A stretch of DNA of 64,000 bases from a virus (IMGVR_UViG_3300042691_041392); one strand, 5' to 3'; positions 5,474 through 63,615 are shown, numbered from the stretch's first letter. The notes: generated by a model from the letters alone, not told the origin. Program-made: numbers and translations.

Positions 5474-5851
5474 ATGGCAAACTATAATTTCACTGACTTT
5501 TATTTAGGATACCCAGAACATCCAAGATTTAAAGATTTAACTCTAATAGAAGATGATGTTATAAGAGTAATTGTTCAAAAGTGGGAAATGATATTATTCA
5601 CTAATAAAGGTGAGGTTTTTGCTCAGCCGGATTTTGGTGGTAATTTAAATTACTATTTATATGAAACTAGACTTTCAGCAGAAACAATTAAAGATGAGTT
5701 AAATGCTCAAATATCAGCTTATATACCAGAAATAAATGGAATTCCATATACATTAGAAGTCAGCTTTTTTGAAGATCCAGAAAGGTATCAGGAGTTCATG
5801 GAAGTATATTTTCAAATAAGAGATTTGGATGTATTCTTGGTAGTTGCTTAA
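5474..5851 (+). CDS. Baseplate wedge subunit, gp25-like
   Basis: ILFTNKGEV..QPDFG..L..YLYE motif. Confidence 0.8.
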   Translation: MANYNFTDFYLGYPEHPRFKDLTLIEDDVIRVIVQKWEMILFTNKGEVFAQPDFGGNLNYYLYETRLSAETIKDELNAQISAYIPEINGIPYTLEVSFFEDPERYQEFMEVYFQIRDLDVFLVVA

Positions 5852-6054
5852 AATCTATAATGTTCATTTATAAATCTTAAAAAATCATGAATATAATTTT
5901 CTTTTATTTTTTTAGGTAAATCTTTAAATTTTATATTATCAGTCCAATCTTTATTAAAAACCCACTTCATATTTTTCGGAGCCTTCTTTTTAGACTTATA
6001 TTTACGACGCATCGCCCAAATATATCTAAACTGTTGTTTACTTTTCGATGGCAT
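5848..6054 (-). CDS. Small basic protein (MP-x-KSK-x-Q, DUF3008-like)
   Basis: MPSKSKQQFR...KDLPKK; C-terminal IHDFLRFINE. Confidence 0.55.
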   Translation of the reverse strand: MPSKSKQQFRYIWAMRRKYKSKKKAPKNMKWVFNKDWTDNIKFKDLPKKIKENYIHDFLRFINEHYRF

Positions 6055-6065
6055 AATTTAATATT

Positions 6066-6722
6066 TTATTTTATTGGACAAAAAGTTGCTGAATAAATGA
6101 AGTTTTCATTTCTTTTTAACTTAACACCCATAACTCTAGCAGCCTCTTCAACATCTTCTAAACATTCTCTATCAGCACCACCAACTAGAATAACATCTCT
6201 AACTTCACCTAATTCTTCATTAACACTTTGAGCCTCTGTTATTTGAATAAATAAATCATGTAGTTTTTTAGGTAAGTGATACCATTTATGATTATTACCA
6301 ATATAAATAATCATAGTACCTTCTTTAGTTGGAAAACTATCACCTTTAACTAATTCATTTTTATCTTCTTTTTCCTTAACATCTTCATAAACATCCGTAT
6401 CCAAAACTGGTTTGAAAAAGTCAGCGTTAACGTCATAATTATACCTTTTCTCAATTAAATCCTTCTGATTTGGAAAGTGATAAAGGTCTTTGTGAACTGG
6501 AATTTCAGGATCTTTATCATATAAATAATCTTTATCAACATTTTTACCTAGATGATGATTATCCCATATTTGATAAACTCTATTGAAATTCTTACAATAT
6601 TTTTTTAACTCACTTAAATAGTTTTCTGTGAAAAATTTTTTAAATGATTTTTGAACATCAACTATTATAAGAATATCATTATTATCAATATTGTATTTTT
6701 CAAACCTTTTCAAATATCTCAT
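6066..6722 (-). CDS. Isochorismatase/nicotinamidase-like cysteine hydrolase
   Basis: ILIIVDVQ (Asp), IEKRY (Lys) and VILVGGADREC (Cys) in catalytic-triad order. Confidence 0.65.
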   Translation of the reverse strand: MRYLKRFEKYNIDNNDILIIVDVQKSFKKFFTENYLSELKKYCKNFNRVYQIWDNHHLGKNVDKDYLYDKDPEIPVHKDLYHFPNQKDLIEKRYNYDVNADFFKPVLDTDVYEDVKEKEDKNELVKGDSFPTKEGTMIIYIGNNHKWYHLPKKLHDLFIQITEAQSVNEELGEVRDVILVGGADRECLEDVEEAARVMGVKLKRNENFIYSATFCPIK

Positions 6723-6732
6723 AATATATATA

Positions 6733-7422
6733 TTAAAAATTAAAATCTAATTTATCTCTTTTAATATCTCTATTGACTCTACTACAAAGAGGTTGTAAAT
6801 TAGTATAGTGATTTAAACTCATTAATTCTTCATCTGTTTTAGCAGAAGATAGTGGTATTATATGATCAATATCCCAACCATAATTTAATTCACCATTATA
6901 TAAACCATAGTTATTCCAATCCATCCAATATTCAAATTTCGACTCTAAATGTAATTTTAATTCTTCAAATGAACATCCAACTATTTCACTTGTTTTAGTT
7001 TTCTTAACTTTTAAAAACCTTTTAACCATAGACCTTGCGGAATTTTTGATGATTTTATTAGGATCTTTCATAACAACATTGTGATAATAATTCTTTTTAT
7101 ACTCTTTTATCTTTTCAAGATTATCAGATCTCCATTTTTTATAATTTTCACTTTTTTTATCTTTATTCAAAATAGCATAATTTCTATCATATTCCTTTTT
7201 AAATTCTAAATTATCTATATACCACTTTTTGCTTTTATCATTACATTTTTGTTTATTTGAAATATAATATTCTTTTTTATACTCTTTATTTTTATTTTTA
7301 TTTTTCTCAGAGTAAACTTTTCTACAATCTTTACAATCATGTCTATATCCATCTTTACTCGAGCTTAATTTCCCAAATAGTTCAAAGCTTTTTTCTTGTT
7401 TACAAGTACAACAAATCTTCAT
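6733..7422 (-). mobile_element. Free-standing HNH homing endonuclease with N-terminal Zn finger
   Basis: CCTC...CKDC; GCSFEELK.HLE; WDIDHIIPLSS...NHYTNLQPLC...N. Confidence 0.85.
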
Positions 7423-7431
7423 TTCTGTAAA

Positions 7432-7890
7432 TTATTTTTCCCAAGTATATCTATATTCAAAATAAATATGAGTATCCATGAAATCAGGATAAGCTGAATA
7501 ATAAGGAATTTCACATCTTTTAAGAAACTGATTTATCCCCAAGTAAAGTTCCTCAATATCATTACCATTTATATGTTCCCATCTATCAACCCACAATTCA
7601 ATTAATAGTTCATATCTTTCACTTTCTATTATACCTTCTAAATTATCAAACCAAGGTCCTACTTTGAGTTGATCACCATCAAAACTTATCATAGTACAAT
7701 GATCCATATTACTATCCGGATATGGATATAAAACTGAAAAATTTATATCTATTGGTGTTAAAATTTTAGCAGAATCACAGGATGATAAAATAACATCTTT
7801 AAACTCATATGGATCTAAAAACCAATATTTATTAATAATCTGTTCTAATTCAGACTGACTTTTGAAATTTTCAAATAATTTTATTATCAT
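7432..7890 (-). CDS. Hypothetical protein with N-terminal IKLFENF tag
   Basis: ORF; TAATATATA motif at 7895-7903. Confidence 0.6.
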   Translation of the reverse strand: MIIKLFENFKSQSELEQIINKYWFLDPYEFKDVILSSCDSAKILTPIDINFSVLYPYPDSNMDHCTMISFDGDQLKVGPWFDNLEGIIESERYELLIELWVDRWEHINGNDIEELYLGINQFLKRCEIPYYSAYPDFMDTHIYFEYRYTWEK

Positions 7891-7942
7891 TATTTATATA
7901 TTAAAAACAAAAGTGTTATATTTGCTTAAATATATATACATT

Positions 7943-8185: not shown

Positions 8186-8187
8186 AT

Positions 8188-8217
8188 AAAAAAGAGACTT
8201 AAAAGTCTCTTTTTTTT
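8188..8217. terminator. Bidirectional terminator between convergent genes
   Basis: aaaaaagagactt aa aagtctcttttttt. Confidence 0.8.
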
Positions 8218-8830
8218 ATAATGGAAGTTCTTCTTCTCCTTCTTCTCCTTCTTCTTGAGCTTGTCCTTGACCCTGAGTTTGTCCTTGACCCTGACCCTGA
8301 GCTTGTCCTTGTCCTTGACCCTGAGCTTGTCCTTGTCCTTGACCCTGAGCTTGTCCTTGAGGTTCTTCAAATTGTCCTTGATCTTGTCCTTGTCCTTGAG
8401 TTTGTCCTTGACCTTCGGCTTGAGTATCTACTTGTACCTGTCCTTGTCCTTGACCCTGAGCCTGTCCTTGTCCTTGACCCTGAGCCTGTCCTTGTCCTTG
8501 ACCTTGAGTCTGTCCTTGAGCACCACCCATCAAAGCGTTTCCTGGAATTTTTTCCAAATCTAAACCACTAATAGTAATATATTTTAATAATTCTTCAGCG
8601 ATTTCAACATCTCCAAAAAATTGACGAAGATTTTTACCAGTAGAATCTTTAACCTTCTTAACGTAAGAGTTAATCAAAGATTGTGGAATATCAACCATAG
8701 ATCTAACTTTATAAATATCACCAACTTGTAAAACTGATTCTTTAATAGCTTCTACAAAAGCAGATTTATTAATTGATTTTAATTTAACCTTTTCTGTTTT
8801 ATAAGATTCAAAAGTTCTAATATGTTTCAT
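8216..8830 (-). CDS. Protein with Gly-Gln low-complexity tract and acidic tail; N-terminal KHIRTFESY tag
   Basis: ORF; (QG)n repeats. Confidence 0.75.
   Translation of the reverse strand: MKHIRTFESYKTEKVKLKSINKSAFVEAIKESVLQVGDIYKVRSMVDIPQSLINSYVKKVKDSTGKNLRQFFGDVEIAEELLKYITISGLDLEKIPGNALMGGAQGQTQGQGQGQAQGQGQGQAQGQGQGQVQVDTQAEGQGQTQGQGQDQGQFEEPQGQAQGQGQGQAQGQGQGQAQGQGQGQTQGQGQAQEEGEEGEEELPL
8255..8520. repeat. Coding tandem repeat (6-nt CCTTGW units in ~24-nt higher-order units)
   Basis: Repeated ctgagcttgtccttgtccttgacc encoding GQGQGQAQ on the minus strand. Confidence 0.9.
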
Positions 8831-10691: not shown

Positions 10692-10692
10692 T

Positions 10693-10724
10693 AAAAAAGT
10701 CACTCAAATTGAGTGACTTTTTTT
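10693..10724. terminator. Bidirectional terminator between clpS and terL
   Basis: aaaaaagtcactcaa a ttgagtgactttttt. Confidence 0.85.
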
Positions 10725-12855
10725 AGTTTCTACCAAACCAATTACTACCTTGTGAATAGTTCGATCTTCTATTTATAAACTGTCTTCTAGCTTTAAGAAC
10801 TTGACCATAATCAAGTCCTTCCATATAATCTCCTTCATTCATACATTTTTCAATGTAAGTCATGAATTGTTTATTGGTTTTATTACCCCACTCTTCAACC
10901 ATCTCTTTGAATTCATTTTTATTAAAGATAGAACTCATGTTAACCAAAGTCATAACGGTATCATCATGACCAACATCAGCCGCATATCTAACATTACCAG
11001 AAGTTGTTGTATGTTTAACAAAAGTTGTTATCTCTCTAATATTATCTTCATTGGTAATAACCAATCCTTTATTCTGCATTAATTCTTGATAATCTTTAAC
11101 CATCATATTTTTATTATCACCAACTTTTAATCCAACTTTCTCTTCTGTTGAATCAACTCTATGTTTATATCTAACAAAAATTGAAGATCCATATTGATTA
11201 TTACCATCAAAAACATGTGGCATCTCCGCCAATAATGTATTACCATAGTTATTTAGCTCCAATACTATTTTAACATTCTCCGGATTAAAATATTCAAAAG
11301 CAATGAGATATAAAAGTTCAGCCAATTGCTTAACTGAAATGAAATTATTTCTATAAATACCTATTTGTTCTAATCGGAAAAAATCAACAATTGATTTATA
11401 CTTAAATTTTTGTTCTTCTATTAAATCAGTTGATTTCTCACCAACTTTAAATATGTTAATAACAGAATAGTCTTGTCCTAAACCTTCTGATATATCTACC
11501 GATAGTACAATTTTATATTCCTTTCTTCGTATTGGTATAAAAGTATCATCATCTTCTATCCATTTTAAATCAGTATAACTAAATCTCAATCTTCTAAGTT
11601 CATCTAATTCAGTAAAAGCGAAATGTTTTTTACCTCTTAATAAATCTTCTATGATAGCCTCATTTAAAAGTGATTTACTACCATTAATAAATCTTAGTCC
11701 ATACTCTTGGTTGAAAGCATCTTCACCACCAATATCCTTAACAGCTTCATCTTTCCAAGTTGTTATTTCAGAAATTGCTAAAATTGAGGTATCCAATCCA
11801 TTTTTATCAACAAAACTCAATGATTTAACCATTTCATCAGTACACTTATCATTATTAAATATGTGTATCACATCCTTTTGAAGATCAATATTAAAGTTCA
11901 TTTCAACCTTTGTTAAATCACCCCAAGTTTCTTTACACAAATTATGTATATCATCAGCAGTAACACCATACTCATACATCTTATGTGGATTTAATCGTAT
12001 ATAAGTAACAAAACGACCAGGTACTTGATACCAATAAACTCTAAATGGTTTATAGTTATTTTTCTGTGGATCACCATCTGGTCTTTCAGCATCAGTTAAT
12101 AACTTATGGAATAAATTCATACCATTAGGAGTTGATGTGATGATAATCTTTGAGTTTTGCACGGCTGATACAGTTGGAAAAGCCGCTGTATAGTAAGGTT
12201 CAATGATATTTGATGGGATATGAGCGAACTCATCTAAGTAAAGTAAGTCAATGGTAAAACCAATTGCTGGTGTCTTTGTTCTTGCCGATGTTTTAATTCT
12301 ACAACCATTCTCAAATGTTAATGATTTTTGGTTCCAAGTTTTAACCCCAGGCTTTAGATAGAATGGTAATAGAGTATAAATAGATTTTACTTTATCAACA
12401 ATCTCAACCGCAGTATCACCTTTGTTCGCTACAATCATTACGTTTTTATCATTATTAAAGAGAATAGTGTGTAAAATAAAAATAGCTGATGATACAGTTT
12501 TACCAACCTGACGAGAAGCCATTAGAATATTGAATCTATTACTAACAAAATTATCCAATATCTCTTCCTGATAATCTCTAAGTTTTATAGAACCAATACT
12601 ACCATCTTCTCTTTTGGTTTTACAATATTGCTCTGTAAAGTAATGTATATCTAAAGCACATCTAATATATTCTTGTTGTTCCTCAGGAGTCATTCTAAAA
12701 GAAACACCTGATCGTTTAATACCAACTTCACCTTTTAGCCAAGGGTTTTGATACCTTTTAAGGACTATACCGTCGTTTATTTTATCAGTAGCATCATCAA
12801 CAAGTCTAGTGGTAAAGACCATCTGTCTTTCTTCTTCTACGTGTTTTTTTGCCAT
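10723..12855 (-). CDS. terL: Terminase large subunit (T4 gp17-like)
   Basis: LRDYQ, Walker A ASRQVGKT, Walker B LLYLDEFAH, ITSTPNG, nuclease VDISEGLGQDYS and HDD. Confidence 0.95.
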   Translation of the reverse strand: MAKKHVEEERQMVFTTRLVDDATDKINDGIVLKRYQNPWLKGEVGIKRSGVSFRMTPEEQQEYIRCALDIHYFTEQYCKTKREDGSIGSIKLRDYQEEILDNFVSNRFNILMASRQVGKTVSSAIFILHTILFNNDKNVMIVANKGDTAVEIVDKVKSIYTLLPFYLKPGVKTWNQKSLTFENGCRIKTSARTKTPAIGFTIDLLYLDEFAHIPSNIIEPYYTAAFPTVSAVQNSKIIITSTPNGMNLFHKLLTDAERPDGDPQKNNYKPFRVYWYQVPGRFVTYIRLNPHKMYEYGVTADDIHNLCKETWGDLTKVEMNFNIDLQKDVIHIFNNDKCTDEMVKSLSFVDKNGLDTSILAISEITTWKDEAVKDIGGEDAFNQEYGLRFINGSKSLLNEAIIEDLLRGKKHFAFTELDELRRLRFSYTDLKWIEDDDTFIPIRRKEYKIVLSVDISEGLGQDYSVINIFKVGEKSTDLIEEQKFKYKSIVDFFRLEQIGIYRNNFISVKQLAELLYLIAFEYFNPENVKIVLELNNYGNTLLAEMPHVFDGNNQYGSSIFVRYKHRVDSTEEKVGLKVGDNKNMMVKDYQELMQNKGLVITNEDNIREITTFVKHTTTSGNVRYAADVGHDDTVMTLVNMSSIFNKNEFKEMVEEWGNKTNKQFMTYIEKCMNEGDYMEGLDYGQVLKARRQFINRRSNYSQGSNWFGRN

Positions 12856-13753: not shown

Positions 13754-14599
13754 TTACTTTCTATAATATTTAAAACTTTCAAATGTTCTTATAAGTTTAG
13801 AGTATTCTAATAAGGTCTTTTTACTTTGAATTCGATTAACTTTATTTGGACTAACCCAGTTTATATAAACAAATTTTTGAATTGAATTTATTTCAGATAT
13901 GATTGTCTTTTTAAGAAAATCCTCTGTATTATCCAGAATAGTTTTTAGAAAATCATTAACTTTTATATTAGTATTCTGCAAATCAGTATCATAATAGTGA
14001 ACCTCATCATATCTTTCAATCTCATTATCTATGAATTTATCACCTTCTGTTTTATAACCAACTAAGTGTTGTAATATAATTCTAATCTTTTTATATAAAA
14101 TTTCATCTAAATCTCTATTATAAAATGTCTCTGATATAAAATAATAATCTTTAATTTCTAAACCTAATTTATAAAGTTTATCTTCTATTTTATCAATTAT
14201 TATTTCATAGTTCTTTTTATTGTTTTTAGAACAAATAATATAAATATGATCTGTTGTATTTTTTATATTATGAAATAAATCCATATTTATCTCATAATCC
14301 AATTCTTTTATTATTTCAGAGTTTGAAAATTCCTGCATAGAAAATCCCAAATTACTCAAATCGAATTTTATTCTCTTACTTTTTATTTTTATTTGATTCA
14401 TCAAATCTTCTGGAAACCAATAATTGGTTCCGTTTAAAGATAATCTTTGATTTTGACTTCTATAAACACCATTTCTAATTAGATTAAAGTCTGATTGTGA
14501 AATCTTTATTATAGGATTATTTGGATTATTTTTATCAATAATCCAAACTTTATTATCAATATTAACTATTGTATCTAAATCAAAAAAATGTGCTTTCAT
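13754..14599 (-). CDS. HAD-like fold protein (degenerate) with C-terminal LIRTFESF tag
   Basis: HFFDLDT at N-terminus, IICS, VHYYDTD. Confidence 0.45.
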   Translation of the reverse strand: MKAHFFDLDTIVNIDNKVWIIDKNNPNNPIIKISQSDFNLIRNGVYRSQNQRLSLNGTNYWFPEDLMNQIKIKSKRIKFDLSNLGFSMQEFSNSEIIKELDYEINMDLFHNIKNTTDHIYIICSKNNKKNYEIIIDKIEDKLYKLGLEIKDYYFISETFYNRDLDEILYKKIRIILQHLVGYKTEGDKFIDNEIERYDEVHYYDTDLQNTNIKVNDFLKTILDNTEDFLKKTIISEINSIQKFVYINWVSPNKVNRIQSKKTLLEYSKLIRTFESFKYYRK

Positions 14600-14838: not shown

Positions 14839-14884
14839 ATTTTATATATTAAAATAAAAAACCCATCTTGTGATGGGTTTAATT

Positions 14885-17113: not shown

Positions 17114-17830
17114 ATGAAATATTTAAAAAAATTTAATGAAGAGTTAGATCCAATGACTTATAGAAGAGCAGCTGCTAAAATCATAAAAAGAGCTGAAAAG
17201 GATCCTTTTTATGATATGGAAACTGCTAAAGCAAGTGCTGAAGAACTAAGAAATTGGGCTTCTAAAAGAGAAGATGATGAAACTATCGTAAAATGGCATA
17301 AAAATATTGAGGAGTTTAAAAAATATGGTAAAATAAAAGCTAATATAAATGGTAAAGTTGGAGATTTTTATCTAAACCTAACATTTGATAGAGATGCCAC
17401 TTTAGATCAATATGAAGATACAGAAGGTTCAGAACTTAATATTGGTTTCTTTATTGGTTTAATACCAGTTGATGAATCTACTAAAGATAAGTTTATGGAT
17501 GAATTTGATGATTTTGGAAATGGGTTCTTTTGGGCATCAATTTTAAATATTAAATTTTCTATTGAGTCTGGAACATATAAATTTGAAAAAATAGAATTCT
17601 TTGATTATGGTGATTCTGTATTTAAAATTGCTGATGCTCCTTCTTCAAAAAGAGTTAAGAAATTAATAATTGACTTATTCAATAACCCAACATTAAATTA
17701 TCCGTCTGGATATACAGATTATGAATATTTCTATGAGTTATTCGAAGAAGTTGTAATACCTGTTGTATCTGGTGATACAGGTATTACGATGGAAGCAATT
17801 GCTGAAGAAATTAAAAAAATTGGATCATAA
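17114..17830 (+). CDS. Hypothetical protein with N-terminal KYLKKFNEE tag
   Basis: ORF; TAATATATA at 17087-17095. Confidence 0.7.
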   Translation: MKYLKKFNEELDPMTYRRAAAKIIKRAEKDPFYDMETAKASAEELRNWASKREDDETIVKWHKNIEEFKKYGKIKANINGKVGDFYLNLTFDRDATLDQYEDTEGSELNIGFFIGLIPVDESTKDKFMDEFDDFGNGFFWASILNIKFSIESGTYKFEKIEFFDYGDSVFKIADAPSSKRVKKLIIDLFNNPTLNYPSGYTDYEYFYELFEEVVIPVVSGDTGITMEAIAEEIKKIGS

Positions 17831-17856: not shown

Positions 17857-18033
17857 ATGAACATTAAGAAATTTAGTGAAATCAACGAAGCTAAGAAGGA
17901 AGACAAAGTTGAGAAAATTGAATCTTATATCGAGAAGAATAAGAAAAACAAATCATCTTACGAGATGTATAAAGAATTGAGAAATGATTTTTCTGAGAAA
18001 GATTTGAAAAAATACTTCCATGATAACTATTAA
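17857..18033 (+). CDS. Small hypothetical protein (58 aa) with NIKKFSEINE tag, not in ORF track
   Basis: MNIKKFSEINEAKKEDKVEKIESYIEKNKKNKSSYEMYKELRNDFSEKDLKKYFHDNY*. Confidence 0.7.
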   Translation: MNIKKFSEINEAKKEDKVEKIESYIEKNKKNKSSYEMYKELRNDFSEKDLKKYFHDNY

Positions 18034-19292: not shown

Positions 19293-21956
19293 ATGAGATA
19301 CCTTAGTAACAGAGATCAATTTTTAAAGGAATCAAAATTTACTGGTTTACAAAAATACGAAAAAACTCCATATTCTGGTGAAGAATTTAAATTATATGAA
19401 AATGAAAATGCAGGTCCATTTGTAAATGATATCGGATGGAATGATTCACTATTAGGTAGATTTATTAATCATTTAGTAAGAAAAGCTAAGATCGCAATTG
19501 GTAAAATGAGATTAAAAGGTCTTATAAGACAGTTAAAATCTACTTTTGATGAAATAATAAGTAGAGGTAGAGTATCCGCTATGAGTAACGAAGATCGTTT
19601 ACAAATAATAAAACTTCAAGTTTATGCCTTCTTTCATGAATTAATACAAGGGGTTAATGATGGTGAAAATATAGTAGTTCTAAAAAAACTTACAAAATCA
19701 GCTATGTCTGCTTTAAAATCAACTGAAGATTTTGAAAAAAAAGATGATTTAATGAATGAATTAGAAGAATTCTTGAAATTCTTAGAACAATTTGGTGATA
19801 AAGAAGGAAGTACTGATAAAAGAGAAGGTCAAGAAGAAGGTCAAGAAGAAGGTGAAGGTTCCGAATCCGAAGCTTCTTATGGAACTATGGTCAAAAACTT
19901 AAAATCTCTATCTTTAATTTTATTAAATTATAAAAAAGTTACTTTTAAAAGTAAAGAAGCATATACAACACAAAAAGGTGACACTTTTCAAAAAATACAA
20001 TCTAATCCACAAGTAAATAAAAGAAAATTGGATATAAAAACTTTAAGAAGTAGAAATCTAAAAATATCTCAAAAATATCCAAAAGATAATCAAGAGTTAC
20101 AACCTGGATTACAATTAGTAATGGAAAACTTTTTGTTTGAAAATACTATTGGTGATGGATCTGGTGTTGAAAGAGGTGTTATTAAATCAGGAGAAGATCA
20201 CTTAACACAAGCTTATAACAAACTTAAAAAGGATATAGAAGTTTTAATTTCAGCCAAAGAAAAAGGTATAGGAGTTGATTATAATTCACTTAGTGATTTA
20301 TTGAAAAATGCTAATGATTCCAAGACTAAAAATAATATAAAATCTTTATACTCAGAGATTAAAAGATATTTAGTCGGAGACAAAAAAGGAACTCTACAAG
20401 ACAAAGATGCTCTTTATAAAGAAAGTTTAAATATTTCTGTTCCAAAAGAAAGAGTTATTATTGCTGAAAAAATTGCTAGATTTGCTAAGAGAGCTTTACA
20501 GTTCAAAGGAACCAATCTTGAAGGTGGTTTAGGTGATTTAAAAGTTCCTCTTAAAGACTTCATATCATCATTAGATGAAATATTAAAATCTAAAATTAAA
20601 ATTGAAGAAAATAGATTATTTAAATATGATACGTTTACAACGTTATTAAAAGAAGCTGATGGTGATAATGATGATAACCAAGATGATGATAACGAAGTAG
20701 AAAGTCAATCTAATCAAAATGAAGGAGGATCTGGTGTATCACAAAGAGTAAGAGAATGGTTTAATAAAAATTGTAAAGGTGTTATTTCGTTCACAATTGA
20801 AGAAGCTGAGGCAAAAAGACTAAGAGTTGAATTTGATAAGGTTAAATCAACTGATTTTGTTATTGATGGATTTGATCCAATTATTGAAATAATAAGAATA
20901 TTCAACAGAGCTTATAAAATCTACACAACTAGAATAATATCAAAAAGAAGTCAAAAAGTGACGGGAGGTACCTCTGGTCCAAGTGCTGGAACAGCGATGG
21001 AATATATGCCACTAGGTAATGGTGGTGGAGAACCATACAGACACATAAAAACATTTAATATTTGGGAAGATGCTGTTTTTGATATTTTAGGAAATAGAGA
21101 ATATCAAGAGATATTTGATAAGAAAACTGGTCTTCGTGTTGGTGATGAAATTAGACCAGAAAAAGGAGTTGCTTTAAGAAGATTTATATTTGATCTTCTA
21201 GATGGTAGTAAACTATATGGTAGAGAAGATGGTGGAACAAGTACAGGTATTCAATCTAAATTTTTAGAAGAATATTTTGGTGAAGTTGATGATAAAGCTA
21301 AAAATTCGGTAACCGAAATCAACGAAGGTGAAGACGGTGCTGGTGAAGCAGCGGCAATGCAAAGTGATATAAACGATGCAGCTGTTGAAGTTTCAATGTC
21401 AAGAGATAATATGCGTATTTTAACACCAGGAGTTGGTTATGTATTCACGATAACATCCGAAACAATAAATGAAGAAGCTTCTGATAACAGTACACAATAT
21501 ACTTTCATTGTAACTGGAGTAAAAGATGGTTATATAAGATTACTTTATTTTAGTAGTATTGGTGGTCTTTTCCCAATGTTCCAAAATGCTGGTAATATCA
21601 AAAGAACAAATATTAAAGGTGACTTCCAAGGACTTAATGTTTATATAGCATCTAATAACGGAAACAAGCTATTGAAACACTACACAAAAATTAAAAAAGA
21701 AGATTTTGTTAATTTGTTCAAAAAAGATTCACAAATTTCTTTAAATCATGTAGTAAGTCCTAATTATAACACATTGAAAAAAGATAACATAAAAATAAGT
21801 AGTATTTATTGGTTATCTAAAACAGTTGATGGTAAAAAGAAACCTTTTAATTTAGAAGGGGATAGTTTAACAAGAGCTCAACAATCATTTGATAGAGGTT
21901 CTACTTGGATGCCAAATATTGATAATAGTGCAATAGTAAAAAGATATACTAAATAA
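19293..21956 (+). CDS. Large protein with an internal LysM-like domain; probable virion/internal head protein
   Basis: YTTQKGDTFQKI...LQPGLQL (about 19959-20120); acidic linkers; late-type promoter. Confidence 0.6.
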   Translation: MRYLSNRDQFLKESKFTGLQKYEKTPYSGEEFKLYENENAGPFVNDIGWNDSLLGRFINHLVRKAKIAIGKMRLKGLIRQLKSTFDEIISRGRVSAMSNEDRLQIIKLQVYAFFHELIQGVNDGENIVVLKKLTKSAMSALKSTEDFEKKDDLMNELEEFLKFLEQFGDKEGSTDKREGQEEGQEEGEGSESEASYGTMVKNLKSLSLILLNYKKVTFKSKEAYTTQKGDTFQKIQSNPQVNKRKLDIKTLRSRNLKISQKYPKDNQELQPGLQLVMENFLFENTIGDGSGVERGVIKSGEDHLTQAYNKLKKDIEVLISAKEKGIGVDYNSLSDLLKNANDSKTKNNIKSLYSEIKRYLVGDKKGTLQDKDALYKESLNISVPKERVIIAEKIARFAKRALQFKGTNLEGGLGDLKVPLKDFISSLDEILKSKIKIEENRLFKYDTFTTLLKEADGDNDDNQDDDNEVESQSNQNEGGSGVSQRVREWFNKNCKGVISFTIEEAEAKRLRVEFDKVKSTDFVIDGFDPIIEIIRIFNRAYKIYTTRIISKRSQKVTGGTSGPSAGTAMEYMPLGNGGGEPYRHIKTFNIWEDAVFDILGNREYQEIFDKKTGLRVGDEIRPEKGVALRRFIFDLLDGSKLYGREDGGTSTGIQSKFLEEYFGEVDDKAKNSVTEINEGEDGAGEAAAMQSDINDAAVEVSMSRDNMRILTPGVGYVFTITSETINEEASDNSTQYTFIVTGVKDGYIRLLYFSSIGGLFPMFQNAGNIKRTNIKGDFQGLNVYIASNNGNKLLKHYTKIKKEDFVNLFKKDSQISLNHVVSPNYNTLKKDNIKISSIYWLSKTVDGKKKPFNLEGDSLTRAQQSFDRGSTWMPNIDNSAIVKRYTK

Positions 21957-50778: not shown

Positions 50779-51000
50779 ATGAGCTTAGTATTAAAAAGTT
50801 TTGACTATTTAATTAACAATAGTTATAAACGAATTTTTGAAGGTAAACATTTTGATGAAAATTTCCAACCTTATACTCAAGATTTCATAAAAGAAATGAT
50901 AGAATACTTTCTATTAAGAGAAGAGTATGAGAAATGTCAATTCTTAAAAGAATATAATTCCAAAAGATTTGATCATGAAAAAAATTATTTATCTAAATGA
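50779..51000 (+). CDS. Small protein with UVR-like motif
   Basis: MIEYF...EEYEKCQFLKE. Confidence 0.5.
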   Translation: MSLVLKSFDYLINNSYKRIFEGKHFDENFQPYTQDFIKEMIEYFLLREEYEKCQFLKEYNSKRFDHEKNYLSK

Positions 51001-51680
51001 GTAATCAAATACAAATAAACACTGTTACATTACCCGATGGAACAACAGGTATTGAAATAAACGACGGTTCAAAACCAACAGGTCATGTTGAAGATTTATC
51101 TACTTTTAAATATGAAAGATCTGAAATACCACAAAGTCTAATTGATGAATGTGAAAAACTATCAGAAGAAAATGGTATAGTATATTTTATCTTCGATAAA
51201 CATATAAAAAATGTTATAGATAAAAACAAATCAAATCTATCAACTGAGGAAAAAAGAGACATAACACTTGATGATATACTAGATGATGGTGATAAATTTT
51301 ATATAGGTTCTGAGAATGAATATAATGAAATGCCATCAAGATTTGCTTACTATGACACAGAAACAAAAACAGTAGGTAGATATAATCGTTATGATAGAGT
51401 TTTAAGTTTCTTTAAAGATTTAGGATTTGAACCAGGTTTCTCAAACTTAGGACCAGAGTTTGAACAATCATTTCATTTAAAAGATCAAGATATTAATATA
51501 ATTTTAAGAATTAAACCAAATCTTATTATAAATATAAGTTGTCATAAAGAATTTTATAATCACACATATAATGGTATCTTTTCAAAAGAAGGTATTTATA
51601 CATTTTTTAAAAAGGTTATAGATGAAAATAAATATAAAGAACTTATAAGAGATAAAAAAATCAATGATATACTATCATGA
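50997..51680 (+). CDS. Hypothetical protein with C-terminal RDKKINDIL tag
   Basis: ORF in a coupled operon. Confidence 0.6.
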   Translation: MSNQIQINTVTLPDGTTGIEINDGSKPTGHVEDLSTFKYERSEIPQSLIDECEKLSEENGIVYFIFDKHIKNVIDKNKSNLSTEEKRDITLDDILDDGDKFYIGSENEYNEMPSRFAYYDTETKTVGRYNRYDRVLSFFKDLGFEPGFSNLGPEFEQSFHLKDQDINIILRIKPNLIINISCHKEFYNHTYNGIFSKEGIYTFFKKVIDENKYKELIRDKKINDILS

Positions 51681-51991
51681 TACTAAACGATACCGACATA
51701 TACATAAAAGAAAATCTCAATAAAATAATGAATGGTGATTGGGATGAAAATTTCAACAATAAAGAAGAGATAGAAATGCTGAAGAAAACATCATTTTTAT
51801 ATAATCACATAAAAATAGAAGAAAGATGTGTTATATTCGAATATGGTGATAAAAAAGTAAAATATAACTTTAATTCAGATCCATTAGATTATCAAATACA
51901 GTTAATCTCTATGATTAGAAATAGTGAGGATTTTCTAAGTTGTTATACCTCATTTTTAAGAGATTGGAAAATAAATAAAATAATTGATTAA
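51677..51991 (+). CDS. Hypothetical protein with C-terminal RDWKINKII tag
   Basis: ORF in a coupled operon. Confidence 0.6.
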   Translation: MILNDTDIYIKENLNKIMNGDWDENFNNKEEIEMLKKTSFLYNHIKIEERCVIFEYGDKKVKYNFNSDPLDYQIQLISMIRNSEDFLSCYTSFLRDWKINKIID

Positions 51992-52953: not shown

Positions 52954-53673
52954 CTACTTCAAGACATTCCAAATATTAATGAACTTTTCTAACCTATCAA
53001 TATAACCATTCAGACCTCCGTTAACTCTTCTACTAACCTTTTCAACAACATCATCAGTTGAACCTAAATCACATATTTTCCATAGATTATTTTTATCAAA
53101 GAAATAAGCTGCTGAAAGCATAGGATATTTAGTAGATACTAAATCAGGATTAGAAACACAATCTTCATTAACAAACTTAGAAAACTTATCATAATTTGCT
53201 CTACCCGTTAATTGTATATATCCTCTTCCTTTAAATTTAACACCATCACCTGGTTGAGTATTACCCAAATCTTTTCTTCCTTCATATGCCTTCCCTGAAG
53301 CAAACTCCACAACCCATTTAAAATTACCACTCTCATGAGCACATTGTGAAAGAAAATGAGCTAATCTTAAATTTGTAGTTATATTAAATCTAGCAGCAGT
53401 ATCTGGTATCTGAGAAATTACATTATCAGGAATAATACCTTTTAATTTTTCTAACTTTAATACAGGATGAGTAACAGTGGAAGTTTGAGTAGTTGGAAAT
53501 AATTTACTCCAAGTTACATCACCTACAACACCATCATCTTTAAGACCATTATCTTTTTGCCATTTCTTAACAGCAGTTTCGGTATTTTTACCAAAGTCTC
53601 CATCAGGTTTTAAACCTAATTTTGTTTGAAGTTTTTTAACATCTTCACCATTTGAACCTAATTTAAGTAACAT
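52954..53673 (-). CDS. Endolysin: peptidoglycan-binding domain plus GH19 glycoside hydrolase
   Basis: LKLGS.GEDV..LQ..LG...DG.FG..T..AV..WQ...GL..DG.VG; AHFLSQ.AHESG, FKGRGYIQLTGR.NY, VNGG.NG..DR. Confidence 0.9.
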   Translation of the reverse strand: MLLKLGSNGEDVKKLQTKLGLKPDGDFGKNTETAVKKWQKDNGLKDDGVVGDVTWSKLFPTTQTSTVTHPVLKLEKLKGIIPDNVISQIPDTAARFNITTNLRLAHFLSQCAHESGNFKWVVEFASGKAYEGRKDLGNTQPGDGVKFKGRGYIQLTGRANYDKFSKFVNEDCVSNPDLVSTKYPMLSAAYFFDKNNLWKICDLGSTDDVVEKVSRRVNGGLNGYIDRLEKFINIWNVLK

Positions 53674-53750: not shown

Positions 53751-54476
53751 TTATTGATAATCTTCTAAAGTTGCCTTTTTCTCAATCCAGATTTCATATC
53801 CATTAAATGATTCATAATGTTCCATTTCTAATAGAAAATCAATAGCTTCTACTAATTTTAATTGCTTACCGATTTCAAATCTTATATAACCAACATCACT
53901 AGTAATACTACTCAAAGAAAGTTCAACAAGTCCACCTAATAAAATATTTTTAGTTTTAAGTTCTTCAAATAAGAAATCAACCATATTATTTTTAATGATA
54001 TCTAAATCTTCTTTTGAGTAAATAAGAACATTCACATCACTATTATTCCAATCATTTATTTTGAAAATATGTTTATCAGAATCAACAACATCAATTGAAC
54101 CCAAATTTGTATCAAAAACATCAGCTAAAGTCTTTTCTAAGTTGATATCAGCCTTCTCAATACCCTTGTATAAGCATTCCTTTAAACTAGCTGTTTTAAA
54201 CTCATTAGATTCAAAATATTTGAAACTTTCAAATGTTAAAACACCATCTGATTCCATATTTACTCGATCTTCAATAACATCTGATAAAACTCTATCAATA
54301 CCATTTACTTCTTTTAAGTTATTTCTGTGTAGAAATTTTGTAAATCTTTCTGAACCGGGTTGTAAATATCTTTTTAAGTTAGAAGGTCTTATCTTCCACT
54401 TATCCATGTAATCATCAATCAACTCATTTATTTGTTGATAATATTTATTAGCATCTTCTCTATTATTTATAGACAT
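53751..54476 (-). CDS. Hypothetical protein with internal VLTFESF tag
   Basis: ORF; late-type promoter at 54499-54507. Confidence 0.6.
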   Translation of the reverse strand: MSINNREDANKYYQQINELIDDYMDKWKIRPSNLKRYLQPGSERFTKFLHRNNLKEVNGIDRVLSDVIEDRVNMESDGVLTFESFKYFESNEFKTASLKECLYKGIEKADINLEKTLADVFDTNLGSIDVVDSDKHIFKINDWNNSDVNVLIYSKEDLDIIKNNMVDFLFEELKTKNILLGGLVELSLSSITSDVGYIRFEIGKQLKLVEAIDFLLEMEHYESFNGYEIWIEKKATLEDYQ

Positions 54477-54538: not shown

Positions 54539-55483
54539 ATGAATGTTTATTATGTATATGCTTATTTAGATCCAAGAAAACCAGGAAAATATGAATATGA
54601 TGATTATAAATTTGATCATGAGCCATTTTACATAGGAAAGGGAACAAAATCAAGAATACTTAGACACCTTAAAAATGAAAATAGAAACCCTATAAAATTA
54701 AATAAGATTAAAAGTATTAGAACATCTGGACATGATCCTATATTACTTAAAATAATAGATAATATAAGTAATGAAGAGTCTTTAAAAATAGAAAAGGAAT
54801 TAATAAAATTAATAGGTAGGCTTTGTAAAAATGAAGGACCTCTAACAAATTATTCACCTGGTGGTGAAACATATATTGGTTATAAACATCAAGAAGACTA
54901 TTTAGAAAAATTATATAAACCAGTTGTTAAATATGATTTAGATGGTAATTATATTGAAGAATATAAATCAGTTGGTGAAGCTGGTGAAAGAAATAATATA
55001 CAACCACAAACAATTAGTCAAATATGTTCAGGTAGAATAAAGTTACATAAAAGTAATTTTATTTTTTTATATAAAGGAGATGCTTTTGAAAAGAGAAAAA
55101 GAGATAAGAAGGAATACCCAGTTATAAGAATAGATTATAACAATAATATGAAAGAATATAAATCGGTTACAGATGCTGCAATTGACAATAAAACCACACT
55201 ATCTAGGATAAACTCAGTTTGCATGGGAGATAGATTTCATACAGGTGGATTTCTTTATAGATATAAAAATCATACTAACATAAATGAATATACAAAAAAG
55301 ATAGAAGATAATTTTGGAGAATATTTAAAACTTTTGAATAAAAAAATAAATATAGACGGTATAATTTACAAAAATCTATTACACGTATTAAAAGAAAAAA
55401 AAATCAGAATAACAAATTTAATGAAGTATATAAATAACACCGATAATAAAATATATAAATATTATGAATTTAAAACAAACTAG
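54539..55483 (+). mobile_element. GIY-YIG homing endonuclease with NUMOD1-like repeats
   Basis: YYVYAY.DPR...PFYIGKG..R...H, E..LI...GR.....GPL.N...GG; PV..YD..G..I.EY.S..EA. Confidence 0.85.
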
Positions 55484-56420: not shown

Positions 56421-56747
56421 ATGAAACATTTAAAAACATTTGAAAATTATTCAGTGAACGAAGAGATTTTTGGACTTTCAAAAGGAGAAAGAGAAGAATC
56501 TAAAAAAGCTAAACTTCAAGGTGAGTTAGATAAAATGTTAAAAGCATGGTCAAGAAAAGGCGCTGTTAATAAACCAACACCAGAAGTTTTAGATAAATTT
56601 TGGGCTGATGCTAAAGCTGATGGATATAAAGGATTACCTGGTTTATCTTCAAGAAAATTTCCAGCTGATTTAGCTTATAGACCAGAAAGTTCAATTAAAT
56701 GGGGTTCTGCTGGGATGAGCGGACACACATTTGGTTCTGGAAGCTAG
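56421..56747 (+). CDS. Hypothetical protein with KHLKTFENYSVNEE tag
   Basis: ORF with own late-type promoter and terminator. Confidence 0.7.
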   Translation: MKHLKTFENYSVNEEIFGLSKGEREESKKAKLQGELDKMLKAWSRKGAVNKPTPEVLDKFWADAKADGYKGLPGLSSRKFPADLAYRPESSIKWGSAGMSGHTFGSGS

Positions 56748-57266: not shown

Positions 57267-57839
57267 ATGGGTAATATTAAGAGTTTTGATTCATTCAACG
57301 AAGAGAAAAAATGGATTAAAGATGCGATTAAAAATCCAGGAGCTTTAAAAAAATCTTTAGGTAAAGGAGAAGATGATAAATTGACTAAATCTGAAATTGA
57401 TTCAGAATTGAAAAAGCTTAAAGCTAAGGATAAAGATAAAGAAAAACCAGGTACACAACTTGGTAAAAAGGATGCTACTAAAAAAAGAAGATTAGAATTA
57501 GCTAAAACTTTAAGAAGTCTTAAAGAACATAAAGAAACTAATAACTATATGTTCTTTGGAAATCTTCAAACAATCAAAAGATTGGTTGATGAGATGTTAG
57601 AAATGGATGAAACAGAATTAGACGCAATTCTTTCTGAACATAACTGGGCTTTAGATCACATCGCAACTTCCAAAGATGATGTTGAAGAAGTTTTCAATTT
57701 TTTAGCTGGACATGAGTCACCAAAATCTGCTGAGGAAAAACCATTATTAGGTGGACCAGAATCATCACACACAGTTCATGATAGAACGGCTAAAAATTTT
57801 AGAGGTGATTGGACTACACAAGGTGAACCACCAATGTAA
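57267..57839 (+). CDS. Two-domain phage protein with NIKSFDSFNEE tag
   Basis: Basic WIKDAIKNPGAL...LAKTL module plus NYMFF.NL...H.WA.DH module. Confidence 0.65.
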   Translation: MGNIKSFDSFNEEKKWIKDAIKNPGALKKSLGKGEDDKLTKSEIDSELKKLKAKDKDKEKPGTQLGKKDATKKRRLELAKTLRSLKEHKETNNYMFFGNLQTIKRLVDEMLEMDETELDAILSEHNWALDHIATSKDDVEEVFNFLAGHESPKSAEEKPLLGGPESSHTVHDRTAKNFRGDWTTQGEPPM

Positions 57840-58457: not shown

Positions 58458-58528
58458 TAAAAACCCTCGAAATGAGGGTTTTTTTATTATCACAAAAAAC
58501 ATTTGACAAACATCCATATAAAATACTT

Positions 58529-58774
58529 ATGGATAAAACTGAAGAAATAAAAATATATATTGAGTATCTTTTAGAAAGATATATTCAATTTTACGAGCTA
58601 TCAAAATCAACAGAATCATTTAAATATGATATAATGGAAGAAATTGATAAAATATCTGAGTCTATGAATATAATACTCAATTCAATTGAGTTTAAAACAC
58701 CAACCGATTTAGATCTTAGAGAATATGTTAGAGATTTTAAATTAAATAAATTATTAAAAGATGGAAAAGATTAG
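58529..58774 (+). CDS. Hypothetical protein with C-terminal RDFKLNKLL tag (start corrected to 58529)
   Basis: The longer ORF call starts inside the terminator. Confidence 0.55.
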   Translation: MDKTEEIKIYIEYLLERYIQFYELSKSTESFKYDIMEEIDKISESMNIILNSIEFKTPTDLDLREYVRDFKLNKLLKDGKD

Positions 58775-59210
58775 TGATTTGATAGAATTTCTCTTTGAAA
58801 GAAAAGATGATGAACGAGTTGAGATAACAATTGATAAAAAATATGGACATAAAAACTTTTACATCAAGTTTCACCCAGATCAAGAACCAGAAGATACAAA
58901 TAACTTAAATACTCAAAGTCCTTTTTCTTCAATGAAAGGAGTTTTTGGTTTTGGTGGTTATAACGGACTAACAATTCACTTTGATTTAAGAAATGAGTGT
59001 ATTATAGTACAAAGAAGAAATAACTATATTGTGGAAGATATAGAACTTTTAAATAAATGGGTTGATATTTTAGATAAATATTTAAAAGATAAATTCAATT
59101 CTGAAATAGATAGTATTATAGATGATACATTTTCTAGTTGTTATAAAAAAGATATTATAAGAGAATGGAAAATGAAAAAAATATTAGATGATAGAGATGA
59201 ATCTTTATAA
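58761..59210 (+). CDS. Hypothetical protein with C-terminal REWKMKKIL tag
   Basis: ORF in a coupled operon. Confidence 0.55.
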   Translation: MEKISDLIEFLFERKDDERVEITIDKKYGHKNFYIKFHPDQEPEDTNNLNTQSPFSSMKGVFGFGGYNGLTIHFDLRNECIIVQRRNNYIVEDIELLNKWVDILDKYLKDKFNSEIDSIIDDTFSSCYKKDIIREWKMKKILDDRDESL

Positions 59211-61144: not shown

Positions 61145-61162
61145 ACTGATTATATATTTTTT

Positions 61163-62035
61163 TCACAAAAATAGTTTATTAAAATCATTTTCCCAAATAG
61201 AGATAATATTAAAACCCATCTTAACTAGATTATTTTCTTTATTTAATGTTTTTTTATATAATTCACCAAATGTCTTTTTCAAAACATTATTATAATCATT
61301 TTGTTTAAAAACATCTGGATTGCCATGCCAAAAATCACCATTGAATTCATAAACAGTTTTAGTTTCAGGATCATATCCATCAACTATATACTCACCTATT
61401 CTAACTTGTCTCTCTGATATATTTAGAGAATCTAACCATTTATTTTCCTTTACACCAAAATTATCACCACATTCCGGACAACCTTGACCAAATAAATGAT
61501 TTTTAGCTCTTTGTTCAAATGAATCATGATGTTTGCAAATTATTAATATTTTTGACCTTAAATTTTTATACCGAACCAAACTATAATCATATTTATAGTT
61601 ATGCACCAAATTACATCTTTCGATAAAATAGTCTTGACTTAATCTATTTTTTTCAGTGGCACAAAAAGAACAACCTTTACCACTTAGATGATTAGTTGGT
61701 GATTGGTTAAAATCACCGTGTATTCTACAAGTTATTACAACATTTTTATGAGATCCAGTATATATTGTATTTTTGTATAAATATTTATCACCATGTACTT
61801 TCTTAGATAGTTCTATAAATTTATCAGAATCATATTTTTTAGATTTTTTACAAAAATAACAACCTCGCCCTCTGAGATGATTAGATGCTCTTTGTTCAAA
61901 AGGTCTATGTATCATACAATTAATAATAATCTTTTCAGATGATTTAGTATAATTAACTAAAGAATAGTCATATTTATCACCATGTATTTTTATAGATTCT
62001 CTTATAAAATCATTATTATCGAATTTAACACTCAT
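61163..62035 (-). mobile_element. Homing-endonuclease-like protein: three Zn-binding repeats plus PD-(D/E)xK/Vsr-like nuclease
   Basis: Three H..KY.Y....Y......I.C..H..F.Q...NHL.G.GC..C repeats; VDGY...EFNGDFWHG...IWE. Confidence 0.8.
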
Positions 62036-62174
62036 TATTTTTAATAATTTTTACCTCATGATAGATATATCTACCGGATGGTAAAATCTCAACTTCTATC
62101 CATCCTCTTTTAACCCAATTACTCAATGTATTTCTAGTAATTTTATATTTCTCCATTATTTCTTTAGCTTTCAT
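62025..62174 (-). CDS. Small MerR-like/IS607-TnpA-like HTH protein (49 aa), not in ORF track
   Basis: MKAKEIMEKYKITRNTLSNWVKRGWIEVEILPSGRYIYHEVKIIKNNEC*. Confidence 0.7.
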   Translation of the reverse strand: MKAKEIMEKYKITRNTLSNWVKRGWIEVEILPSGRYIYHEVKIIKNNEC

Positions 62175-62259
62175 AATGTATATATTAAAATATTTTTACT
62201 CTTTTTGTATATTTTTAAACATTTTTGTATATATTTGTTAAATAAATTAAAATATAAAC

Positions 62260-63345
62260 ATGAAAATAAACGAAGATTTTTTAAAAGATTATCTAAATTC
62301 AAATGGTCCTGTTGGCTTTGAGTATGAACTCGATGGTTGTGAAAAAACTACACAAAAATTATGGATGGAGTATATCTCAAAATATGTTGATAAAGTAGAG
62401 ATTGATAACTACGGAACTGCTTATGGTATTACTGGTAATTTGGATTCTGATTTCAAAGTTGTAATTGAAAGCCATTGCGACGAAATCAGTTGGTTTGTTA
62501 AACACATTGATTCTAAAGGTTACATCAAAGTAATCAGAAATGGTGGTTCAGATTCTCAAATAGCACCATCAATGAGAGTTACCCTATGGGGTGATAATGG
62601 TCCAGTTGAAGGTATTTTTGGACACCCAGCAATTCATATTTCTTATCGTAAAAAAGAAGTAGATTTAGATTCTATCTTCATCGATGTTGGTGCATCTTCT
62701 AAACAAGATGTTTTAGATATGGGTATTAATATTGGTACAGTAGCAACATTCACTGATGGGTTTATGAAGTTAGGAAAAGACTACTATACAGGTAGAGCAT
62801 TAGACAACCGTATTGGTGGGTTTATGATTGCTGAAGTTGCTCGTAGATTAAAAGAGAAGGGTAAAGAATTACCATTCAAACTTTATATCGTGAACTCTGT
62901 TCAAGAAGAAGTTGGTTTATGTGGAGCTTCTATGATTACAGAAACTATTAAACCAAACGTAGCAATCATCACCGATGTTTGTCACGAAACATCAGCACCT
63001 TGTTACAACGCATCTAAAGAAGGTGAAAATGTAGCTGGTAAAGGTGGTGTTATTACAAGAGCCCCAGCTGTACATAACAAATTAAGAAAGTTAGTATTGG
63101 ATGTAGCAACTAAAAAAGAAATTCCTTTCCAATTAGCGGCTTCTTCAAGATCAACTGGTACCGATACAGATGCTTTCGCATTCTCAAATGGTGGTGTACC
63201 ATCAGTATTGATTTCAATGCCATTGAAATACATGCACACAACGGTTGAAACTTGTCACAAAGATGATGTTAAAAATGTTATTAAGTTGATTTATCATACT
63301 TTATTAAACATTGAAGAAAATCATAATTTTAAATACAATGCTTAA
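62260..63345 (+). CDS. M42 family (TET) metallo-aminopeptidase
   Basis: SHCDEI, NGGSD, RALDNR.G, VQEEVG, TDV.H, TGTD.D, YMHT. Confidence 0.9.
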   Translation: MKINEDFLKDYLNSNGPVGFEYELDGCEKTTQKLWMEYISKYVDKVEIDNYGTAYGITGNLDSDFKVVIESHCDEISWFVKHIDSKGYIKVIRNGGSDSQIAPSMRVTLWGDNGPVEGIFGHPAIHISYRKKEVDLDSIFIDVGASSKQDVLDMGINIGTVATFTDGFMKLGKDYYTGRALDNRIGGFMIAEVARRLKEKGKELPFKLYIVNSVQEEVGLCGASMITETIKPNVAIITDVCHETSAPCYNASKEGENVAGKGGVITRAPAVHNKLRKLVLDVATKKEIPFQLAASSRSTGTDTDAFAFSNGGVPSVLISMPLKYMHTTVETCHKDDVKNVIKLIYHTLLNIEENHNFKYNA

Positions 63346-63378
63346 TTAAAAGAAAAACCTCTCATTTGAGAGGTTTTT

Positions 63379-63615
63379 TTATTTATTTCTTTTTTCTACA
63401 TCCTTTTCAAGAGCAGCATACATTCTTTCCAATTCAGTATCATCCATTTCTTCCAAATCATCATCTTCAAAACCAGATATAACTTCTAGTGGCTCTTCCA
63501 TTTCCTCTCTATCCAATTCATCATTATTAGATTTAACATCATCTAGATAAGGAAATTTATCTTCTGGATGTGGATTAAAGTTTTTAAATTCTTTTAAATA
63601 ACTTAACTTCTTCAT
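63379..63615 (-). CDS. Small acidic protein with YLKEFKNF tag
   Basis: ORF coupled by TAATG overlap. Confidence 0.55.
   Translation of the reverse strand: MKKLSYLKEFKNFNPHPEDKFPYLDDVKSNNDELDREEMEEPLEVISGFEDDDLEEMDDTELERMYAALEKDVEKRNK

Follow-up and report, generated by a model that had tools for sequence, protein, structure and literature searches.

Unrelated proteins of a huge phage begin with a short peptide that resembles the capsid-targeting sequence of T4 internal proteins

The 64,000-nucleotide stretch of viral DNA analyzed here (the window; virus IMGVR_UViG_3300042691_041392), which corresponds to bases 10724-74723, minus strand, of a 101,185-bp virus record (contig G000), encodes a series of otherwise unrelated proteins that begin with the same short peptide, hereafter the N-terminal tag. 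The contig has a G+C content of about 27% and a CheckV completeness of 17%, and 127 genes were called on it. Its sheath gene shares 78% DNA identity with two records from uncultured phages, 634 and 642 kb in length, while its capsid protein is 73% identical to the capsid of these records, 50% identical to that of the 735-kb record LR756501, and 28–29% identical to those of Lak phages and Tenacibaculum phage PTm1 (29% for PTm1). Because of the sheath and capsid identities to the 634-, 642- and 735-kb records, we consider the window a piece of a huge phage, kin to the largest phage genomes known. Two relatives served for comparison: the complete LR745206 (634,780 bp, put together from 32 loci; 931 proteins) and the 735-kb relative, sampled over its first 400 kb (537 proteins).

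The core of the tag reads [LI]-[KR]-x-[FYW]-x-x-[FY], mostly from residue 2–4, and a short form reads [LI]-[KR]-x-[FY]-N-E; acidic residues and a hydrophobic-x-Glu site usually come after the core. Tags were counted with (i) the regular expression [LIVM][KR]x[FYW][EDNKSQ]x[FY], starting within residues 1–8; (ii) a position weight matrix (PWM) of 11 columns, with a threshold of 8.6 equal to 0.1% false positives as measured on internal windows, and a score of 15.1 marking 0.01%; and (iii) the expression [LIVM][KRN]x[FYW][NS]E for the short form, which escapes the PWM. The tagged genes of the window, in window coordinates and with lengths in amino acids (aa), are as follows, ORFan denoting an open reading frame (ORF) so labeled in our analysis.

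6066-6722, minus strand: tagged protein MRYLKRFEKY, 218 aa, PWM 12.2
7432-7890, minus strand: tagged ORFan MIIKLFENF, 152 aa, PWM 18.0, TAATATATA immediately upstream
8216-8830, minus strand: tagged protein MKHIRTFESY, 204 aa, PWM 15.3
17114-17830, plus strand: short-type tagged protein MKYLKKFNEE, 238 aa, found with the short-form expression
17857-18033, plus strand: tagged small protein MNIKKFSEINEA, 58 aa, PWM 12.1
21956-22516, plus strand: tagged protein MKYLKNWSLYLED, 186 aa, directly upstream of the sheath gene, PWM 11.0
46216-46491, plus strand: tagged small protein M-I-MIKRFKEFIKEE, the closest to the T4 sequence discussed below, PWM 21.7
56421-56747, plus strand: tagged ORFan MKHLKTFENYSVNEE, 108 aa, PWM 16.6, TAATATATA upstream
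57267-57839, plus strand: tagged protein MGNIKSFDSFNEE, 190 aa, PWM 16.4, TAATATATA upstream
63379-63615, minus strand: tagged small protein MKKLSYLKEFKNF, 78 aa, PWM 12.4, core from residue 7, in an operon of four tagged genes
63615-64000, minus strand: 3' part of a tagged gene, PWM 22.8, whose start MKYLKLFENFESEEE lies beyond the window end (window-equivalent coordinate 64109)

A first-pass annotation of this DNA had noticed that about 15 unrelated proteins share such a motif, and had proposed that its enrichment be measured against shuffled controls. On the contig, the regular expression matched 14 of the 127 N-termini, whereas 0.26 were expected from whole-protein shuffles and 0.36 from shuffles of the first 25 residues only (maximum of 4 in 1000 trials), so that the N-terminal excess lies more than threefold above every one of the 1000 shuffles. 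Mock N-termini placed at internal methionines matched once in 522 cases, and none of 51 rejected ORFs matched. The PWM tagged 16 of 127 contig proteins and 87 of the 931 proteins of LR745206, where about one was expected; the 55 LR745206 proteins found by the regular expression are spread over 53 BLAST families. Short forms were present at 33 N-termini in the contig and LR745206 together (0.4 expected) and add one protein on the contig (M..LKKFNE) and about 27 in LR745206, bringing the totals to about 17 of 127 and about 114 of 931. The tagged share is therefore about 12–13% of all genes, well above the first estimate. Ten or eleven of the twelve N-terminal examples originally listed hold, while those at 19293 and 33571 fail when taken alone. 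In the 735-kb relative, 38 of the 537 proteins are tagged, and many of these tags read MIKKYIQFINEA or MIKTFDEFINES.

Outside the tag, the carriers have nothing in common. The tagged proteins of the contig show no BLAST similarity to one another past residue 16, none of ten tested against Pfam had a family above the gathering score, and PHROGs likewise gave nothing useful; for the ORFan at 7432-7890, neither a Pfam nor a PHROG family was found. Within families, conversely, the tag is strongly kept. In each of the three families studied in depth (1167, 312 and 1149 homologues), the hydrophobic, basic and Glu positions are near-invariant, while the residues in between and the linker that follows vary. 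The top 120 of the 1167 homologues of the 6066-6722 protein all begin M[RK]Y[LI]KTFES, and the 312 homologues of the 46216-46491 protein conserve I, K, F, F, I, E and E with variable residues between them. Wherever a tagged contig gene has an orthologue in LR745206, the tag is kept: the LR745206 orthologue of 8216-8830 has MKHIRTYENY, orthologues of 17114-17830 begin MKYLRKFNEEL and MKYLKRFNEEL, and that of 21956-22516 starts MKYLKKYKIFLEAD. Tagged genes turn over faster than others, with an LR745206 homologue for 6 of 14 tagged as opposed to 74 of 106 untagged genes. Synonymous codons in the tag core follow genome usage (K AAA 0.76, F TTT 0.79, L CTA 0.26), and since they are as variable as elsewhere, selection acts on the peptide. 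AlphaFold2 (AF2) models of two families, with a predicted local distance difference test (pLDDT) score of 80–81, place the tag outside the fold as an unstructured segment (pLDDT<50); in the 6066-6722 model, tag residues 1–12 fall below 50 and the folded part begins with residue 17. A candidate hydrophobic-x-Glu cleavage site, with its Glu at residues 8–14, was found in 70% of tagged proteins, compared with 27% of untagged ones.

Tagged genes are dispersed over the whole genome. Genome-wide, 15 adjacent tagged pairs were counted where 8 were expected, a mild clustering, and at LR745206 450900-452809 (loci L030-L031) five small tagged genes follow one another, beginning MKYLKTFESY, MKHLNKFNES, MKHLKKFNES, MNHLKKFNEN and MKHIKIFEEF.

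The internal proteins of phage T4 have in common only the capsid-targeting sequence (CTS) MKTYQEFIAE, which leads them into the scaffolding core, the gp21 protease then cutting once, after the CTS (PMC8442874, PMC3012670, PMC5694885). We applied the PWM, trained solely on huge-phage tags, to the 264 ORFs of T4 (NC_000866). Exactly four ORFs scored above threshold and occupy ranks 1–4: gp61.1 (19.3), ipIII (16.2), ipII (16.2) and ipI (11.6). The T4 CTS itself scores 16.2, above the 0.01% mark as well as the threshold. Since a matrix built from huge phages only picks out ipIII, ipII and ipI in T4, the tag is, as judged from sequence, statistically indistinguishable from the T4 CTS. The best match, gp61.1 (NC_000866 18966-19130, locus L064), is a 54-aa hypothetical protein encoded beside the primase gene that begins MKTFKEFIKED. 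It may be an unrecognized CTS-bearing T4 protein or a sign that the motif alone is insufficient; we know of no report of gp61.1 in the T4 virion.

Of the tagged genes, 61% are preceded by the promoter-like motif [AT]ATATATA, compared with 24% of the untagged ones (p 6e-14, five-fold enrichment), while the Bacteroidota-type (host-type) motif TAnnTTTG is depleted upstream of tagged genes (6% as opposed to 15%). In front of 6066-6722, for example, TAATATATA ends 4 nt upstream of the ATG. That tagged genes stand behind this promoter was thus borne out, although the motif is not specific to them: it is also found in front of the genes for capsid, protease, portal, sheath, tube and terminase. Because the motif is common to head and tail genes, the tagged genes are probably expressed late, alongside the head genes. 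The distance from the end of [AT]ATATATA to the ATG is bimodal, at 4–6 nt or 18–29 nt (about 60 genes; e.g., motifs at 6723-6740, 7891-7908, 5455-5473 and 14839-14856). The motif ends 4–6 nt before the ATG at 37 of 63 tagged genes, and likewise at many untagged ones. Should its role be that of the late -10 element of T4 (TATAAATA), mRNAs of the short-spacing class would be leaderless or nearly so.

The contig also encodes a T4-type head. A portal-like protein is encoded just past the left edge of the window, and beside it lies the gene for a 702-aa protein (G000:C1:81012-83120, window-equivalent -8396..-6288) that we interpret as a protease-scaffold fusion. Its N-terminus matches Peptidase_S77 (PF03420, the T4 gp21 family; E 1e-7, G000:C1:81081-81428), its middle consists of about 11 tandem 14-residue repeats of NIAYSEYIAENLDK, which contain YIAE, and an acidic stretch and a conserved C-terminal domain are also present. 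The YxAE repeats are kept across a 61-sequence alignment of diverse homologues, the family has 2838 representatives at 50% clustering, and the PTm1 homologue is annotated as 'prohead core scaffolding protein and protease'. The scaffold-like region is presumably degraded by the protease. The repeats were rejected as copies of the tag (best PWM score 4.0); they have aromatic-x-E-aromatic-hydrophobic-x-E in common with the best tags and with T4 QEFIAE, which is a loose resemblance. Next after the 702-aa gene come a gp23-family capsid protein (G000:C1:83207-84958; PF07068, E 3.6e-27) and then a tagged 204-aa protein. A phmmer search of the capsid protein against solved PDB chains, seeking the propeptide cleavage site via T4 gp23, returned nothing at E<=0.001; HSINE|NAY, at residues 41–43, is a candidate site. 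A complex prediction for the 702-aa protein (61-row alignment) and the 89-aa tagged protein of 46222-46488 (49 rows), run without controls, scored 0.00, gave no verdict and is informative neither way.

Copies of the motif away from the N-terminus had been proposed as well, and most of those listed look like chance matches. On the contig, the regular expression matched 7 such positions where 4.5 were expected, so that this class as a whole is at chance level, while C-terminal PWM matches numbered 8 in the contig and LR745206 together, as opposed to 1.9 expected. IHDFLRFINE (C-terminal in 5848-6054, minus strand) scores 0.1 on the PWM and has no homologue in LR745206, and VLTFESF (internal in 53751-54476, minus strand) scores 2.3 and lies within a uniformly conserved domain; both were rejected as tags. 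One C-terminal copy and three copies at module junctions look real, and three of these lie in the window.

13754-14599, minus strand: HAD-like protein with LIRTFESFKYYRK as its last 13 residues (LIRTFESF), placed by homologue conservation and model
19293-21956, plus strand: 887-aa protein with the weak N-terminal variant MRYLSNRDQFLKE and internal LFKYDTF at residue 442, followed by an acidic linker
32369-33571, minus strand: 400-aa two-module protein with the degraded N-terminal tag MKILKYNE and internal IKKFEDF at residue 180

In 120 homologues (52–100% identity), the tail of the 13754-14599 protein, [LI]IKTFExF..WKK, ranks with the most strongly conserved columns, and in the AF2 model the fold ends at residue 263 while residues 269–281 (pLDDT<50) lie outside it. 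In the 887-aa protein, MRYLSNRDQFLKE is below the PWM threshold but is a conserved weak variant, and LFKYDTF aligns with ILKTFESF (PWM 15.3) of the orthologue. IKKFEDF (PWM 15.0) opens the second module of the 400-aa protein; the orthologue of module 1 begins MNHLKKFNEN and is without module 2, and MKILKYNE reads as a decayed tag with a good counterpart in MNHLKKFNEN. The third junction copy is a perfect internal tag, LKKYDQFLNEE, at residue 476 of a 614-aa protein encoded outside the window next to the capsid gene (G000:C1:85690-87534). As its LR745206 counterpart is two separate genes (452 aa and 169 aa), the second of which begins MKINKYKKFLEK, this copy is an N-terminal tag that gene fusion has made internal. 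In the 614-, 887- and 400-aa proteins, the internal tag is followed by an acidic stretch. The N-terminal part of the 614-aa protein is GADDKAG/HxxE peptidase-like and has four more paralogues in LR745206. These few conserved copies would agree with a label that keeps its function where modules meet, and the claim of position-independence is supported only in part.

Tagged proteins have a median length of 183 aa. Fold assignments came from an exhaustive structural aligner only and are weak in both cases, Foldseek having found no PDB match at E<=0.001 for the models of the 6066-6722 and 13754-14599 families. The 6066-6722 protein has an isochorismatase/nicotinamidase-like (cysteine-hydrolase) fold, with the top 28 structural matches all isochorismatase-like (Z 6.7–8.4) and with Asp22 and Cys187 invariant in the family; the 13754-14599 fold is HAD-like, with the T4 Pnkp 3'-phosphatase as top match (Z 7.7). 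The first-pass annotation had anticipated both folds, which thereby gain weak support, and had also expected basic, DNA-binding-like cargo, which was not what we found.

Among the remaining genes of the window, PHROGs identified a clamp loader, SbcD, endonuclease VII and an endolysin in addition to the following.

10723-12855: terminase
22576-26610: sheath
27949-28569: tube

Sheath, tube and terminase are without the tag, as had been stated, and the endolysin (52954-53673) has none either. Homing-endonuclease-like genes are scattered among the structural and replication genes (28694-29503, 30980-32338, 54539-55483, 6733-7422 and 44920-45696); the set includes GIY-YIG-like starts and Cys-rich, HNH-like paralogues (6733-7422 and 44920-45696, 46% identity).

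Lastly, we observed a second tag, [RK][DEN]xK[ILM]xx[ILV][LFIV] (e.g., RDFKLNKLL, RDKKINDIL), within the last 22 residues of 8 contig and 77 LR745206 proteins, as opposed to 21 internal matches in both genomes. In the window, it is found at the C-termini encoded by four genes.

50997-51680: second-tag gene
51677-51991: second-tag gene
58472-58774: second-tag gene
58761-59210: second-tag gene

No protein carries both tags, where about 8 would be expected, and [AT]ATATATA precedes just 3.5% of second-tag genes. The 735-kb relative is without the second tag over its first 400 kb. The exclusive split between an N-terminal tag with [AT]ATATATA and a C-terminal tag without it suggests that the proteome is sorted by short linear labels.

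Taken together, we consider it probable that the N-terminal tag is the counterpart of the T4 CTS, expanded to about 12% of the proteome, and that it directs its carriers to the core of the prohead, where the gp21-like protease trims them. The resemblance to the T4 CTS, the many unrelated carriers and the T4-type head genes all speak for the capsid-targeting interpretation that had been put forward, while its position-independence holds in part and its basic cargo not at all. Tagged proteins would be made late, alongside the head proteins, and their exposed, unstructured tags would bind the scaffolding core, which here is joined in one protein to the gp21-like prohead protease. Once the gp23-like shell had closed round the core, the protease would cut, after Glu, the repeats of the scaffold (with YIAE at 14-residue intervals) and the majority of the tags, and the freed cargo would remain in the head and enter the host along with the DNA. 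A more far-reaching version, to which we give distinctly less credence, is that the tag is a position-independent address label, working N-terminally, C-terminally or between modules, that brings about 12% of the proteome (about 100 mostly acidic proteins, enzymes included) into the prohead, where the protease would free modules at the Glu after each tag in a polyprotein-like manner.

Several observations weigh against targeting to the prohead. As the top T4 match, gp61.1, carries just a hypothetical annotation, a motif match alone is no proof of packaging. The protease match is at the Pfam cut-off (27.5 bits as opposed to 27), 12 of 69 tags have no hydrophobic-x-Glu within 30 residues, and the 6066-6722 hydrolase family has just T-F-E in place of such a site. 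Tagged proteins are mostly acidic (median isoelectric point 5.2; 59% below 5.5, 16% basic), and a propeptide at the N-terminus, as in the T4 model, does not account for C-terminal and internal copies. Among cultured phages, none was found to have the tag; the nearest of them, PTm1, has the same protease-scaffold fusion but only 2 of its 303 proteins exceed the PWM threshold, so that this head type does not need the tag, and PTm1 was rejected as a cultured model for it. Furthermore, head cargo amounting to about 12% of a proteome is, to our knowledge, far past any documented case.

Some of these same points speak for the possibility that the tag is a genuine sorting or recognition signal that serves something other than the head, such as a docking motif for a phage modifying enzyme, a chaperone, a protease, or another late structure or compartment, with the likeness to the CTS reflecting a common amphipathic-helix design. 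The acidic cargo, the number of carriers, the tagless head module of PTm1, and the second, unrelated C-terminal tag on 85 other proteins, which implies more than one tagging system, keep this explanation alive, and the C-terminal and internal copies agree with it. However, the matrix retrieves all three canonical T4 internal proteins, the head/tail promoter motif and the hydrophobic-x-Glu sites fit head assembly, and one conceivable partner, a radical-SAM enzyme, was rejected because the contig has no such gene and LR745206 a single one, as opposed to tagged genes genome-wide. We therefore regard a non-head signal as possible, though clearly less likely than targeting to the prohead.

Explanations in which the peptide has no function of its own fare worse. 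The 5' coding sequence could be a nucleic-acid feature, either an enhancer of translation initiation on late mRNAs with a short leader or none, or a handle by which recombination swaps gene cassettes, with the peptide as a by-product. The short promoter spacing at 37 of 63 tagged genes suggests leaderless mRNAs, in which the first codons might matter, and at the ip loci of T-even phages the CTS-coding stretch has been proposed to help cassette exchange. Yet the short spacing is common to many untagged genes, the peptide is also found on genes that lie inside operons and have no promoter close by, as well as at a C-terminus and internal junctions, substitutions are conservative in amino acids (L/I, K/R, F/Y/W), and the synonymous codons of the tag show just the variation seen genome-wide, all of which makes this explanation very improbable. 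Chance in K/F/E/N-rich proteins at 27% G+C, or hidden paralogy of the carriers, deserves still less belief, to the point that we set it aside. Although the AT content is very high and the loose expression matches internal sites at close to the shuffle rate, for the N-terminal class the shuffles, mock N-termini, BLAST families and PWM counts refute it, and the carriers share no similarity outside the tag.

Huge phages of 500–735 kb encode hundreds of genes of unknown function. Should the tag act as it does in T4, about one-eighth of the proteins of such a phage would be pre-loaded in the capsid and delivered with the DNA, and the tag would provide a sequence-based catalogue of candidate first-minute effectors (anti-defense, host takeover) that requires no host culture. 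If the position-independent label were real, the giant capsid would also be a large protein-delivery device with cargo predictable from sequence. Because the tag is so close to the T4 CTS, the idea could be tested in T4 itself, and T4-based protein packaging would gain new, naturally diverse tags.

Our literature search found no paper linking huge phages to a CTS-like tag, but three known packaging systems invite comparison. As in T4, a peptide of about 10 residues at the N-terminus is the sole common part of unrelated, fast-evolving proteins, it follows the pattern hydrophobic-K-x-aromatic-x-x-F-hydrophobic-x-E usually with a hydrophobic-x-Glu site after it, and the head genes include those for a gp21-family protease, a gp23-family capsid protein and a scaffold. 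The differences are of scale, with about 17 of 127 (contig) and about 114 of 931 (LR745206) proteins as opposed to three or four in T4, and of kind: T4 internal proteins are small and highly basic, whereas the cargo here is mostly acidic, with enzyme-like folds, and falls outside that basic class; a second short form (LKKFNE), a few conserved C-terminal and internal copies, and fusion of the scaffold to the protease are further differences. Packaging by the CTS is established in T4, while for the huge-phage tag it is predicted from sequence. In phiKZ-like giants (SPN3US, phiKZ), ejection and inner-body proteins loaded into the head have long propeptides that a gp21-like protease cuts at S/A/G-x-E (PMC5694885). 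These, too, are giant phages with a T4-related prohead protease and with head-loaded proteins trimmed after Glu; their propeptides, however, are 80–130 residues long and have no single short motif in common, whereas the tag has about 10 residues and is near-identical in about 100 proteins. In phage P1, the first 30 residues of DarB suffice to send this large anti-restriction protein, as well as a reporter, into the capsid (PMC9024508). DarB is thus similar in having an N-terminal signal for capsid packaging, but it differs in showing no sequence similarity to the tag, in being a single cargo, in its ordered Dar assembly pathway, and in belonging to a phage that is not of the T4 type.

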